Below, one piece after another: positions 41,504 to 48,841 of a stretch of 64,000 bases of DNA (its first letter is position 1; each line of letters opens with the position of its first letter). A program made the translations under genes and the position numbers. Below the pieces are notes generated by a model that had not been told where the DNA came from, ran no database searches, and worked only from the letters and a program-made list of their open reading frames with translations. Source of the stretch: a virus (lineage: Duplodnaviria > Caudoviricetes); the IMG/VR virus record IMGVR_UViG_3300031813_000004, positions 1 to 64,000 of that record; one strand, written 5' to 3'.

Positions 41504-44122
41504 ATGAGTGAAAATCAAGCTGTCTTGATTGATAAATCTGGTGTTAAATTAGTTAAAGGTGTAATGGGTTATGATCATAACAAAGATATAGAAACATTTA
41601 TTCCAATATCAAATAGTAAAAGATTAGAACATATAGATTTTAATTCAAGATTATCTAGTATAAATAGCAGTAATGATTTTATTATACCAACCAATTGTAA
41701 ATATATTAGAAAATTAAATAATCAATATACTTTATTTGTAATTGAGGAACCACCAGCAGTTAGAACTATTAAAGTTAATTTAGAATTTAATATGGTAATA
41801 GAAAATTTAATAACAACTGGCAATTTAGAAGAATTTGGTTTTGAAAATTTTCTTAAAAATAAACCACCATATGAATTCAATTTATCTTTTCCTTATGTGA
41901 TATTTATGATTGTTTTAAATACTATAACTGGTACATATCAACAAGTCAAAGTATTTTTTAGATTACACCCAATTAATAGTTTACATGATTATTTATTAAT
42001 TCCAAATTTAACAAATATACATGATGACAGAAGTTGTTGTTTGGGTGAATTAAATGGAGCTGGTGGATTTGTTAAAGGAAATGATTTAAATGATACAATT
42101 TTTAATGTTATAAATGCATTTTGGTTAAATGAATATAATTCTGATTTAATGTCTACATATGATTCATATAAAAATGTTTATGAATTAAAGTCATTTTTGC
42201 ATTGGGATTATTTTACTAGATTAGACCCAATGTTTATATTTTCAACTCAATGGAAAAGTCATCCTAAAAATATCATACAAGAATTAGAAGTAATTTCAAG
42301 AAGTATAAGGGGATTAGAAGATAATAAAAGAGATTTTTTCAATGTGGCTAGAGAATTAATTTTGTCTCAAAATCTTAATAATTTAAAAAATTATGAAAAT
42401 ATTCCGTCTAATTGTTTATCTATTACATTTGTTTATGGAGAATCATTTTTACTTTTAACAATTGGAGATGAAATTAAATTAGAAGATAAAAATTATTATA
42501 TATATGAATTTGTAGGAAATATACAAATAGATAAAACAAGTGGGCAAGTTTTAATTGACCAAAGTTCGATTACTAAAATTAAATTAGAAGATGATGAAAA
42601 AAATATTATTCTTAAAGATTTTAATAATGATTTTAAAAAATTAATATTTGAACAACAAAGTGCTAATGATATTAAAGAAATTGAGGTTAATAATACTAGT
42701 TTAAAAATAGGAAATTTAATACAATTTATAGAATCAGGAATGAATTTTTATAAAAAGGTTGAAAAATTTAGAGTTAATAAATATGGTAAATATGAATTTT
42801 TATCATGTGGTGATTATTATAATATAGAAACATTTAAAGGAAAAATAGTTGATCCAGAAAATTTTGAGTTAAATGGACATAAATTAGTAAAAGGTAATAA
42901 ATATATACATAATAAAACTCTTGGACATCAAGGTGTTATAACATATGGAATGATTAAAATGAAATTTGAAAGTTTAAATATAGAATCCAATAGAAGAATG
43001 ATATTAACATTTATAAAATCTGATGGTGATTCATTTAGAATGTTTGATACTGACTTTAAAGCACAAGTTGTAGTAGACAATGACGAAAACCAAGGAAATT
43101 TGAATCTATTTAGAATTGGTAATAAACTTTTTATCAATAATGAAAGAAATTGTATATATATTAAAGGAGAAGGAAGAATAATTACAAGTGATATGAATTA
43201 TTCAAGAAAAATACAAACAAATAATACAGTATGTAATACTTTAATAGAATCAGAAAAAGTAGTATGTTTAAATAGATTAGAATATGTAAGGCAAAATGCA
43301 ATTGTTGATAATAAATTTTGTATTAAAAGTTATGATTTAGATATTGAATTAGAGATTGGCAATAATATAGTTTTTGTAAATTGGGAAGTTCCACAAGAAA
43401 TGTTTATAACAAGAACTATAACAGGATTTAGATTTTGTGAAGAAACATTTAAAATGTATATAGATACTAAAGATAGAAATGGAAATGAAAAGTCAATCGA
43501 ATATATCAACTTTAAAGATTTTACAATTAATATTGAAAAAGTTAGAAAGTGTGTTTCATCTTTAGGATCAATATCTATAGGAGATAAAGTTAGAAATGTT
43601 GGTGAAAGAATACAATGTTTCTTAAAGAAAGATATTCATATGGTAATGAATATCATAGTTGATTCAGGATCTTATCCATTGATTCTATGCTCTAATTATT
43701 GTTGTATATGGGCAGAAACTTCCAATTTAGAATCATTTGAATTTGTTAAAAATAATTCTCCAGAATATACAAAACTAAAGGTTACAATTTTTGAAGATAC
43801 CAAACATATTCAACCCAAACCTGGTGATATAGTATCATTTAAAAATAAAACAAGAAGTAATGATCAATGGATTAAATCTGTTTATATGGAAGATTGGATG
43901 GTAACAATGTCGATGATATTCACTGGAGAATATCCCGAAGGAACATATCCAAATAATTCAATAGAAATAAAACAAGAAGGTTTATATATTCAAAGAACTT
44001 CTGATACAAAAAGGAGAGACTTCCCATATAAATATGCTATTTCTAATCTAATGGGTAGTTTTATTAAAGATCCCAGAAGCAATCAATCAATAAGACTTGA
44101 CTGGAGGTTTCATAATGTTTAA
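41504..44122 (+). CDS. large protein with N-terminal prokaryotic E2-like (Prok-E2_D / PRTRC-B-like) domain
   Basis: LSFPYVIF..VFF..PNLTNI...CCLG..NAFW..EYN pattern; context next to JAB, E1 and Ubl; start moved to the ATG at 41504. Confidence 0.7.
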   Translation: MSENQAVLIDKSGVKLVKGVMGYDHNKDIETFIPISNSKRLEHIDFNSRLSSINSSNDFIIPTNCKYIRKLNNQYTLFVIEEPPAVRTIKVNLEFNMVIENLITTGNLEEFGFENFLKNKPPYEFNLSFPYVIFMIVLNTITGTYQQVKVFFRLHPINSLHDYLLIPNLTNIHDDRSCCLGELNGAGGFVKGNDLNDTIFNVINAFWLNEYNSDLMSTYDSYKNVYELKSFLHWDYFTRLDPMFIFSTQWKSHPKNIIQELEVISRSIRGLEDNKRDFFNVARELILSQNLNNLKNYENIPSNCLSITFVYGESFLLLTIGDEIKLEDKNYYIYEFVGNIQIDKTSGQVLIDQSSITKIKLEDDEKNIILKDFNNDFKKLIFEQQSANDIKEIEVNNTSLKIGNLIQFIESGMNFYKKVEKFRVNKYGKYEFLSCGDYYNIETFKGKIVDPENFELNGHKLVKGNKYIHNKTLGHQGVITYGMIKMKFESLNIESNRRMILTFIKSDGDSFRMFDTDFKAQVVVDNDENQGNLNLFRIGNKLFINNERNCIYIKGEGRIITSDMNYSRKIQTNNTVCNTLIESEKVVCLNRLEYVRQNAIVDNKFCIKSYDLDIELEIGNNIVFVNWEVPQEMFITRTITGFRFCEETFKMYIDTKDRNGNEKSIEYINFKDFTINIEKVRKCVSSLGSISIGDKVRNVGERIQCFLKKDIHMVMNIIVDSGSYPLILCSNYCCIWAETSNLESFEFVKNNSPEYTKLKVTIFEDTKHIQPKPGDIVSFKNKTRSNDQWIKSVYMEDWMVTMSMIFTGEYPEGTYPNNSIEIKQEGLYIQRTSDTKRRDFPYKYAISNLMGSFIKDPRSNQSIRLDWRFHNV

Positions 44123-45227
44123 TATTTATGTGAATGATGAGAATTTAAAAGAATTACCAGATGATGATATTTGTTATATTATAGCAAAAGATGGTGTATA
44201 TTTAAAGAAGAAATTAGGTTTAATTGAAAGTTTAACTCCAGTAAAAAATATTAGTTTTCTTGATAATATTCAATGTCATGCAAAAATGAATATTCCAAAA
44301 ATACCTGGAATAATTTATGCACAATTGTTTGATTTCTTTAAAGAAGTATATCATCAACACAGAGCTGAAGGTTTAGCAATTATTTATTACAATTCAAAAA
44401 GTAAAAAATTTAAAGTTCATATTCCAGTTCAAGCAGTTAATGGAGCAGCAGTAAATGTAGAAAATGGTTATCAAATACATATACCCAATTATCAACCAGT
44501 TTGTTCCATTCATAGTCATCCAGGATTTAGTGCTTTTCATAGTGGCACTGATACCCATGATGAAGAAGATTTCGATGGTCTTCATATTACAGTTGGAGAA
44601 GTAGATTCTGAAGCTCATATGATAGTTGCATCTATAGCATCTAATGGTTATAGAGTACAAGTTGATCCATTAGATTATATTGATGGAGTTTATTTAACTG
44701 AATATTCAAAATATTTTCAACATATGTTTAGGCCTAAATTTGAAGTTGTCAATGGCTCAAAAGTTTATGAAAAAGAAGTTAAAACTTCAACTGGTTATGT
44801 AATAGATTCATATTTATCATCAGTGACATGTGACCCAAAATGGTTGTTGAATATTGAGAAATATAATTTCAGAAAAGTTACATATGCAGGATACCAACCA
44901 AAAGGAGGTGGTTATCAATATGGTCAGTATTCATTAATAGATGATTATGGTGATGGTTATGGATATGCTGGGTATGGAGCTGAATATGATAGTATGATTA
45001 ATGCATATTTTGGATATCATAATCCAACGGAAAAACCAAAACTTCAAATACCACAACATTCAAGTGCATCTTCAACTCCATCAGGAAAAACATTTAATCC
45101 ATGTTATTTATGTAATTTAAAGTTTTGCAAAACCTCAGACGAATTTGTGAGTTTAATTAAAAGTATGGGAAGTGGAAAATCAAAAATCGAAACAGAGGAG
45201 ATAATCATTGAACCAGTGCGACCATAA
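44115..45227 (+). CDS. JAB/MPN+ metalloprotease (PRTRC-A-like)
   Basis: E..P.Q..HSHPGFSAFHSGTDTHDE JAMM motif. Confidence 0.88.
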   Translation: MFNIYVNDENLKELPDDDICYIIAKDGVYLKKKLGLIESLTPVKNISFLDNIQCHAKMNIPKIPGIIYAQLFDFFKEVYHQHRAEGLAIIYYNSKSKKFKVHIPVQAVNGAAVNVENGYQIHIPNYQPVCSIHSHPGFSAFHSGTDTHDEEDFDGLHITVGEVDSEAHMIVASIASNGYRVQVDPLDYIDGVYLTEYSKYFQHMFRPKFEVVNGSKVYEKEVKTSTGYVIDSYLSSVTCDPKWLLNIEKYNFRKVTYAGYQPKGGGYQYGQYSLIDDYGDGYGYAGYGAEYDSMINAYFGYHNPTEKPKLQIPQHSSASSTPSGKTFNPCYLCNLKFCKTSDEFVSLIKSMGSGKSKIETEEIIIEPVRP

Positions 45228-48359: not shown

Positions 48360-48376
48360 GAGGATACATACAATAT

Positions 48377-48841
48377 ATGAAAAAAATTGAAGATATTAAA
48401 ATATTATCAGAAGAAAATAACATAACCACAAAACTAAATATAAATTGTAGGATTAAACCTACAATACTTATACAGAATAATAAAAGATATGAAATAATTA
48501 ATTTAAAAGAAGAATTTATAATTAAAAATTATTCAATAATATTAAAAAATGGATTTTTAAACACTGTCTATTTTGATAGTCCTCATCCAAATAAGAATCC
48601 AGATAATAACGAGTATTGTTTAGGAAATTATTTTAAAATTGAAAGATTTGAATGGGATTCAGATTTAGATATTTTAGAACATCAAATATTAATTCATAAT
48701 TATGATAATTGCTATCAAAAGTATTGGGGAACTTTTTCTTATGTTTCTACAGATTTAAAACAGTTAAGTTTTAAAATAAATAAAGAAAAACAAATTATAA
48801 ATAAAGGATTTAATTTTTCAAATTCACTCATTATGAATTAA
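48377..48841 (+). CDS. putative E2/UBC-like protein
   Basis: PHPN-KNPDNNEY-CLG resembles the E2 HPN-x(7-8)-C active site; immediately downstream of an E1-like gene. Confidence 0.55.
   Translation: MKKIEDIKILSEENNITTKLNINCRIKPTILIQNNKRYEIINLKEEFIIKNYSIILKNGFLNTVYFDSPHPNKNPDNNEYCLGNYFKIERFEWDSDLDILEHQILIHNYDNCYQKYWGTFSYVSTDLKQLSFKINKEKQIINKGFNFSNSLIMN

Follow-up and report, generated by a model that had tools for sequence, protein, structure and literature searches.

A jumbo-phage gene cluster predicted to encode a reversible ubiquitin-like conjugation system

Here, we analyzed a cluster of eight co-oriented genes, all on the + strand, at positions 41504-48841 of a 64,000-nucleotide stretch (the window) that forms the first 64 kb of the IMG/VR virus record IMGVR_UViG_3300031813_000004 (150,156 bp). 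The cluster is predicted to encode a ubiquitin-like conjugation system of a jumbo phage, comprising an E2 candidate (E2L), a JAMM metalloprotease (JAB), an E1-type adenylating enzyme (E1a), and a ubiquitin-like protein (Ubl) as tag, together with a second E1-like and a second E2-like protein (E1b and g154) and two smaller conserved proteins (g170 and g85). CheckV rated the record as 48% complete, so the phage genome should measure ~300 kb. All genes of the window lie on the + strand, and its guanine-plus-cytosine (GC) content is ~26%. The first three cluster genes overlap (E2L/JAB by 8 nucleotides, JAB/E1a by 20 nucleotides), and a GGAG-type ribosome-binding site precedes every refined start of the eight genes; a promoter and terminator scan of this AT-rich region was uninformative. 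The whole analysis was computational, using sequence comparison and predicted folds, with invariance counts drawn from 23 to 31 homologues per family. The cluster contains the following genes and features, with JAB residues numbered from the open reading frame (ORF) start at 44097:

41504-44122, + strand: E2L, E2 candidate of 872 amino acids in three regions
41504-41677, + strand: E2L N terminus (residues 1-58), weak likeness to PC4/Sub1
E2L residues 55-251, + strand: UBC-like domain by fold match; Cys179 codon at 42038-42040
42374-44119, + strand: E2L tail of ~600 residues, beta-rich with a periodic motif
44115-45227, + strand: JAB, JAMM metalloprotease with a PRTRC_A-like N-terminal domain
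44367-44369 and 44511-44552, + strand: predicted JAB catalytic residues, the E91 codon and the HxHx7Sx2D motif
45208-45897, + strand: E1a, minimal ThiF-type adenylating enzyme of 229 amino acids
45721-45723, + strand: codon of the candidate catalytic Cys172 of E1a
45992-46666, + strand: Ubl tag with two Rho_N/HeH heads, a linker, and a beta-grasp domain
~46016-46129 and ~46187-46303, + strand: heads of the tag (Rho_N, 7.6e-12)
~46439-46663, + strand: beta-grasp domain of the tag, preceded by an Ala/Pro-rich linker and ending ...GSGRKG-stop
46678-47190, + strand: g170, conserved protein present in ~14 related loci
47247-47465, + strand: g85, small conserved protein of 72 amino acids counted from an ATG
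47478-48359, + strand: E1b, second ThiF-like protein
48377-48841, + strand: g154, minimal UBC-like protein with core residues 1-123

The E2-like protein that the initial annotation had recognized by its PNLTNI..CCLG stretch is E2L. Across the family this motif reads N[IL]x6-8C[LI]G, so that the canonical E2 motif of HPN followed by Cys is not complete and only N-I/L...C is kept. Cys179 is invariant in 29 homologues and likewise in all four paralogues found in two more distant loci, L033 and L036. An AlphaFold2 model of residues 1 to 284, built from a 29-sequence alignment, had a mean pLDDT (predicted local distance difference test) score of 87. Foldseek searches of the PDB with this model returned UbcH7 at ranks 1 to 4, and VIA-align against 48,161 chains gave a top 50 for residues 55 to 251 consisting nearly entirely of E2, UEV, and RWD proteins (Z, 4.5-5.5). 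The bacterial proteins Cap2, BubB, and CdnG-E2 were among the VIA fold matches. Furthermore, of 28 related phage records, 19 had their E2L orthologue picked out by the Pfam family Prok-E2_D (PF14460; 12-24 bits; E values from 1e-6 to 2e-2); it was the sole candidate scored in each of these 19 records, and the matches centered on the Cys region. The same family matched 6 of 10 E2L homologues, with a best E value of 8.3e-5. As controls, Prok-E2_B had zero matches among the 28 records and UQ_con had no valid one, its single spurious match lying within a stop-broken frame.

The N terminus of E2L resembles PC4/Sub1 with a Z of ~4 over 53 residues (VIA). In the tail, the motif [IV]G[DN]x[IV] recurs at residues 321, 403, 464, 539, 619, 693, and 774, i.e., at a spacing of 61 to 82 residues, a periodicity that suggests about seven small beta modules. 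A description of the tail as tandem repeats was rejected after weak segment-to-segment hhalign comparisons (best probability, 29%), and no Pfam domain was found in the tail among 10 homologues. Full-length homologues of E2L in protein collections share 25-39% identity, and a profile of the N-terminal region collected 2,686 cluster representatives (50% identity) at E values of ≤1e-3, 416 of them at ≤1e-30. In BFVD, the E2L model matched only uncharacterized phage proteins (E values down to 4.5e-9). Megablast and tblastn searches with the E2L gene and protein against GenBank phages found no matches, and PDB sequence-profile searches gave nothing useful. A single-sequence scan of IMG/VR was also empty; the related loci described below were obtained by a profile scan alone.

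The HPN..C protein of the initial annotation is encoded by g154. His70 and Pro71 are invariant and Asn72 is present in at least 90% of homologues (48584-48592), with an invariant Cys81 (48617-48619) eight residues on. The AlphaFold2 model of g154 (pLDDT, 84) yielded a Foldseek list dominated by E2 and UEV proteins and a VIA top 50 made up of E2 proteins only (Z, 5.0-5.7; root mean square deviation, ~3.4 Å), in which ~100 residues aligned to E2 residues ~18-135. No UQ_con or Prok-E2_B match to the g154 sequence was found. A UBC fold in the two E2 candidates had been named in the initial annotation as one of the points on which its reading would stand or fall; for both, the match lists were almost wholly E2, UEV, and RWD proteins at a Z of ~5, and the reading survived. 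With modest confidence, and at the level of predicted fold only, we assign E2L residues 55-251 and g154 residues 1-123 to the UBC/E2 superfamily. We do not claim that E2L and g154 are paralogues (hhalign probability, 1%).

The Pfam ThiF model scored E1a at 71.9 bits (cut-off, 28.1), in agreement with the ThiF/E1 protein initially annotated here, and the GxGGxG motif, D41, N49, R52-Q53, K61, D105, and C172 are invariant in the family. E1a thus exceeds the cut-off of the hidden Markov model (HMM) and has the GxGxxG motif, the NxxRQ arginine, and the Mg-binding Asp that define the E1/ThiF/MoeB group. The solved proteins nearest to it are ThiF-type proteins, MoeB, Uba4, and UBA5. Cys172, the candidate catalytic residue, sits in a P-x-E-M-x-C-E-E loop.

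The JAMM protease was likewise borne out. Its motif HSHPGFSAFHSGTD represents a complete HxHx7Sx2D, and E91, H139, H141, S149, and D152, i.e., the full JAMM motif characteristic of JAMM/MPN+ proteins, are invariant in 31 sequences. Prok-JAB matched the window protein at 3e-5 (24.3 bits, with a cut-off of 25), and its homologues in cultured phages scored above the cut-off. PRTRC_A aligned over nearly its entire model, N-terminal domain included (2.5e-8), and a profile of JAB matched Rpn11, AMSH, and, weakly, BilC.

For the beta-grasp protein, the initial annotation had pointed to a C-terminal Gly, and the family consensus, ...LEF[LIV]K.xG.KG, indeed ends in an invariant Lys-Gly. The C terminus of the window protein gave weak TGS and Ub-Mut7C matches (TGS, 21.9 versus a cut-off of 22.2). 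Among 31 family members, Rho_N was detected in 25, TGS in 18, ThiS in 15, and SAP in 7. An ESM Atlas model of residues 163 to 237 resembled ThiS, RnfH, and Mut7-C ubiquitin-like clusters (template modeling score, 0.6-0.76), and a PDB sequence-profile search of the beta-grasp part found nothing useful. In most tag genes the stop codon directly follows the Gly; in seven relatives the protein extends 1 to 7 residues beyond KG, as C, YK, VILTK, or IDVGL. In the tag gene of one relative (L031:14314-15273), two full units of HeH plus beta-grasp follow one another head to tail, both with GRKG at the end; by its sequence, the product is a polyubiquitin-like precursor. The KG end, the extensions, and the double tag are reminiscent of ubiquitin precursors and argue for the Gly carboxylate as the reactive end, exposed by a peptidase. 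The protein therefore combines the two hallmarks of a ubiquitin-like modifier, a beta-grasp fold and an exposable C-terminal Gly. The GC content of its gene (0.40) is higher than that of its neighbors (0.19-0.30).

The second E1-like protein of the initial annotation was confirmed in part. ThiF matched E1b with 68.5 bits, yet only over residues 4 to 111, the Rossmann half, in which GxGxxG, D34, K57, and DCxD are intact. In the E1b family, NLxNS replaces NLxRQ, so that the Arg is lost, and the sole invariant Cys lies inside DCRD, leaving no candidate catalytic Cys; E1b may thus not be a regular E1. The Rossmann half is closest to the E1 halves of CBASS Cap2-type proteins (PADLOC E1-E2, 7e-15; 6A-MBL cap2_3, 9e-10). 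At its C terminus (~48330-48356), E1b has ...PQTISA where relatives have ...PETG[AGS]A. This tail is highly conserved, its final Ala is invariant, and it is reminiscent, by analogy, of a Ubl or CD-NTase tail open to activation by an E1. A built-in Ubl or UFD in the C-terminal domain of E1b found no support in an Atlas search or in hhalign comparison with the beta-grasp part of the tag. In several relatives, the genes for E1b and g154 overlap or abut. Searches of Pfam, PHROG, NCBIfam, and PDB gave no match for g170, and a PC4-like nature of g85 was rejected since neither Pfam nor PDB profiles supported it.

The profile scan of IMG/VR for E2L identified 34 loci, the contigs reaching 527 kb in length. 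Gene order was read by phmmer searches of the ORFs of these loci, and in ~30 of them the common order is SbcC-like, radical SAM, WYL_2, E2L, JAB, E1a, Ubl, (g170, g85), E1b, g154, (g74), RNA polymerase beta', beta. The synteny survey proposed in the initial annotation therefore had a clear outcome: the same arrangement in ~30 independent viral contigs is far beyond chance. Two loci, L033 from a 527-kb phage and L036, deviate from this order. They contain only E2L-type proteins (two paralogues per locus), JAB, E1a, and Ubl in a rearranged order, and RNA polymerase genes are absent nearby, which indicates that the four-gene core moves as a unit.

These two distant modules have further neighbors. 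In L033, a sigma-70-like gene (L033:9220-9792) immediately precedes both E2L paralogues, and the same 527-kb phage has a second, separate Prok-E2_D gene (G024:C1:130638-130970) that scores above the cut-off (32 bits). Upstream of the cassette in L036 (L036:551-5016) are genes for two SPFH/Band-7 proteins, a nucleoside 2-deoxyribosyltransferase-like gene, and a gene for a small separate protein above the Prok-E2_D cut-off (27.9 bits).

Searches with the JAB protein also led to cultured phages, namely Salmonella phage Arash, Vibrio phages D69, D181, and D148, and a Bacillus phage; the closer analysis covered Arash and D69. In Vibrio phage D69 (OZ195729.1; L038:2262-6819), the order is a triple tandem tag with repeats each ending in TGTKG, two unknown genes, an E2-like gene, JAB, and E1; the E2-like protein contains PFPN..C.G and matches Prok-E2_D at 4.4e-4. 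Salmonella phage Arash (OQ632216.1; L037:1519-4539) encodes an E2-like protein (gp248), JAB (gp247), and E1 (gp246) where its linear record ends; a tag gene was not recognized near gp246-gp248. Mass spectrometry detected gp246 and gp248 in a particle preparation of Arash, where they were annotated as "structural" in a proteome that also contains many plain enzymes (PMC10585845). This detection among plain enzymes shows expression of gp246 and gp248, not a structural role. As cultivable phages with simpler relatives of the cluster, D69 and Arash make the idea of a phage conjugation system directly testable.

As the initial annotation had stated, the cluster lies directly upstream of a second RNA polymerase. 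The window thus carries two separate multisubunit RNA polymerase sets, with NAPRTase and a GyrB-like topoisomerase between them, and also codes for a helicase and an SbcC/Rad50-like ATPase. The neighboring features are:

314-1690 and 3276-7409, + strand: RNA polymerase set 1, C-terminal part of beta' and beta
7716-8891, + strand: NAPRTase
24619-26448, + strand: GyrB-like topoisomerase
40112-41149, + strand: radical SAM/SPASM gene with weak viperin-like and PapB-like matches
49267-51957 and 53147-56245, + strand: RNA polymerase set 2, beta' and beta (pair 49267-56245), directly downstream of the cluster

The beta' subunit shares only ~28% identity with the nearest cultured phages. Between the beta' and beta genes of set 2, a 275-amino-acid ORF (52285-53112) carries an 8-residue GDSIRNSI-like unit in ~20 tandem copies. 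The radical SAM/SPASM and WYL_2 genes (40112-41471) are syntenic with the cassette in the RNA polymerase-linked clade and missing from the distant L033 and L036 modules.

We consider it probable that the cluster encodes a phage-owned, reversible ubiquitin-like conjugation system of the 6d/PRTRC/Prok-E2_D lineage and forms a core module of this jumbo-phage clade. Motifs, predicted folds, and synteny all support the pathway of this kind that the initial annotation had attributed to the phage. In the proposed mechanism, deduced at every step from sequence and predicted fold, the minimal E1a would adenylate the tag (HeH-HeH-beta-grasp, its ...Lys-Gly end being free), which would be taken as a thioester onto Cys172 and handed to Cys179 in the UBC-like domain of E2L. 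It would then be joined to target lysines, with the ~600-residue tail of E2L probably picking the targets, since no E3 is evident. The JAMM protease would both trim precursors (KG plus 1 to 7 residues, or tandem tags) and strip conjugates, and E1b and the mini-E2 g154 would act as an accessory pair, which we regard as specific to the RNA polymerase-adjoining clade. Given the nucleic-acid-binding heads of the tag and the site flanked by SbcC-like/WYL_2 genes on one side and the second RNA polymerase on the other, DNA- or transcription-associated proteins would be the likeliest targets, and the likeliest role would be modification of such proteins, of phage or host, during infection. The large E2L family, the gene overlaps and ribosome-binding sites, and the lack of sulfur-relay genes further support a conjugation system, and conservation of the core favors a function within the infection cycle of the phage itself.

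Several points weigh against this interpretation. Both E2 candidates have modest fold-search Z values (~5), and the UbcH7 matches of E2L in Foldseek have weak E values (0.14-0.4). Of the families expected in the initial annotation, JAB, ThiF (twice), and a beta-grasp domain were recovered, while Prok-E2_D was seen only in relatives of E2L and only below its gathering cut-off (25 bits); E2L of the window has no Pfam match, including none to Prok-E2_D. Also, no invariant or near-invariant His column follows Cys179 on the C-terminal side in 29 sequences. ThiF, MoeB, and UBA5 bear their cysteines in the crossover-loop region; Cys172 of E1a can be placed there only approximately, because the MoeB alignment stops ~23 residues before it. 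The link to DNA and transcription rests on domain fusions and neighborhood in a genome with overall conserved order, and since gene order is conserved clade-wide, synteny alone is no proof of a functional link. Finally, an E3 is not evident.

A more far-reaching version of the conjugation model would be a chromatin-style code, in which the HeH-headed tag is written by the giant E2 and erased by the JAMM protease on DNA-bound phage or host proteins, such as RNA polymerase, nucleoid, or replication factors, with the giant E2 also recognizing the substrate. E1b could then form a heterodimer with E1a, like Aos1-Uba2 or APPBP1-Uba3, that feeds two E2s; or its own ...TGAA tail could be activated and transferred by the mini-E2. 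We offer this picture tentatively and consider it rather unlikely.

The same biochemistry might instead serve as a weapon that tags host defense or nucleoid proteins, for counter-defense or takeover, or, in the manner of Bil, proteins of phages that compete with it. In favor of this use, the characterized bacterial relatives (Type II CBASS, Bil, and probably Bub) all act in phage-host conflict, and the E2L tail, large and fast-diverging (25-39% identity), would suit an arms race over target recognition. We nevertheless judge such a use unlikely, as the cluster holds a fixed position amid replication and transcription genes in every related contig recovered, unlike patchy anti-defense genes, and PADLOC reported no match for E2, JAB, or Ubl, Bil-type or other, beyond generic E1 halves. 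Another alternative is a sulfur-carrier pathway, in which E1a would make a beta-grasp thiocarboxylate for cofactor or for nucleotide or DNA modification, with JAB acting only as maturase, as in CysO/Mec+, and the radical SAM protein possibly joining in. Bacterial trios of Ubl, E1, and JAB do work in this way (PMC1779556), ThiF and MoeB are the nearest named families of E1a, and the radical SAM/SPASM gene is syntenic with the cassette in the RNA polymerase-linked clade; the radical SAM gene is absent from L033 and L036, however. Moreover, the trio is kept together with two UBC-fold proteins whose Cys is invariant, and the tag has DNA-binding heads and occurs as tandem poly-tags. In line with the initial annotation, which had seen no thiamine or molybdopterin genes, none of rhodanese, MoaE, and ThiG was found in this record or in any of five relatives, which include a complete 277-kb genome with terminal repeats, and cysteine desulfurase is absent from this record, the one in which it was sought. 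Such partner genes could in principle come from the host, but with this evidence a sulfur carrier appears very improbable.

Least probable in our view is that the E2-like proteins are non-catalytic UBC/UEV adaptors or structural proteins, with the tag bound non-covalently or conjugated by E1a only, as for archaeal SAMPs. UEV, RWD, and FTS folds do occur among the top fold matches of E2L, the Z scores are modest, and the Arash homologues of E2L and E1 belong to a virion proteome in which they are labeled "structural" (PMC10585845). That list includes many plain enzymes, though, and an invariant Cys is shared by all E2L proteins, the four paralogues of L033 and L036 among them, and by every g154, where it stands beside HPN. 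We therefore retain catalytic conjugation as the preferred interpretation. If active, the system would make protein tagging part of the phage infection program and would provide new scaffolds for a minimal E1 (229 residues) and a minimal E2 (~110 residues).

Among known systems, the closest likeness is to operon class 6d and PRTRC. Class 6d was defined by Iyer, Burroughs and Aravind in 2006 (PMC1779556). Both 6d/PRTRC and the phage cluster have separate genes for Ubl, E2, JAB, and a small E1; E1a aligns to PRTRC_ThiF (1.3e-8) and JAB to PRTRC_A (2.5e-8), and Prok-E2_D of class 6d is the sole Pfam family that finds E2L orthologues. The scores (PRTRC_A, 33.7 versus a cut-off of 101.8 bits; PRTRC_ThiF, 34.5 versus 144.75) mark the phage proteins as relatives, not members. 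In class 6d, the catalytic Cys of the E2 is followed on the C-terminal side by an absolutely conserved His (PMC1779556), whereas the phage E2 has no conserved His and is fused to a ~600-residue tail, and the phage tag is fused to HeH heads. The PRTRC cassette includes a ParB-related protein, which the phage lacks (ParB_N is absent from this record and four relatives, including the complete 277-kb genome), and the phage has an extra E1-like/E2-like pair. While PRTRC occurs on plasmids and integrative and conjugative elements, the cluster described here sits beside an RNA polymerase as a core block in a jumbo phage of lytic type.

The Bil system (BilABCD) likewise consists of four parts, Ubl, E2, JAMM protease, and E1, without an E3, and its E2 was proposed to choose targets itself (Bil paper). 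BilD is an E1 with two adenylation domains in tandem, an inactive one and an active one, and a separate Cys domain; E1a is a single 229-amino-acid adenylation domain, which places it outside Bil. BilB, in contrast to E2L, retains a conserved His near the Cys, and Bil is host-encoded and acts against phages, tagging a phage tail protein. With Type II CBASS, the cluster shares the Rossmann half of E1b, which is nearest to the Cap2-type E1 (7e-15), and the E2 domain of Cap2 appears among the fold matches of E2L. Cap2 is an E2-E1 fusion, whereas separate genes, in the opposite order, encode E1b and g154; the phage also lacks a CD-NTase (SMODS was absent from 5 records) and a Prok-E2_B match, and E1b has no conserved catalytic Cys. 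With neither ParB nor CD-NTase and HMM scores far under the cut-offs, strict membership in PRTRC or CBASS was rejected. Bub (6E/DUF6527) offers a precedent for Cys-less E1 and E2 proteins that still conjugate and for multi-domain tags, with 1 to 3 beta-grasp domains and varied N termini, and BubB is among the fold matches; unlike Bub, the phage cluster retains an invariant Cys in E1a, E2L, and g154 and uses a JAMM protease, with no DUF6527 protease seen.

Among phages, TAPI and TAPK of lambda/T1 pair a beta-grasp protein with C-terminal Gly with an adjacent JAB peptidase, without E1 or E2 and in a tail-gene context, whereas the cluster has both enzymes in a replication and transcription context. 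In the full-text literature searched, which covered few subscription journals and included PMC7824862, PMC13282480, PMC1779556, and the Bil and Bub papers, we found no description of a phage-encoded E2-JAB-E1-Ubl cassette. Within that literature, prokaryotic Ubl conjugation has so far been demonstrated only for cell-encoded systems (CBASS, Bil, and Bub), mostly anti-phage. Compared with these, what appears to be new is that a virus owns the machinery, conserved as a core module in a large lineage of uncultured jumbo phages, and that the domain make-up is distinct, with a tag bearing predicted nucleic-acid-binding domains, an E2 whose large tail is a putative substrate-binding region, and an additional E1-like/E2-like pair.

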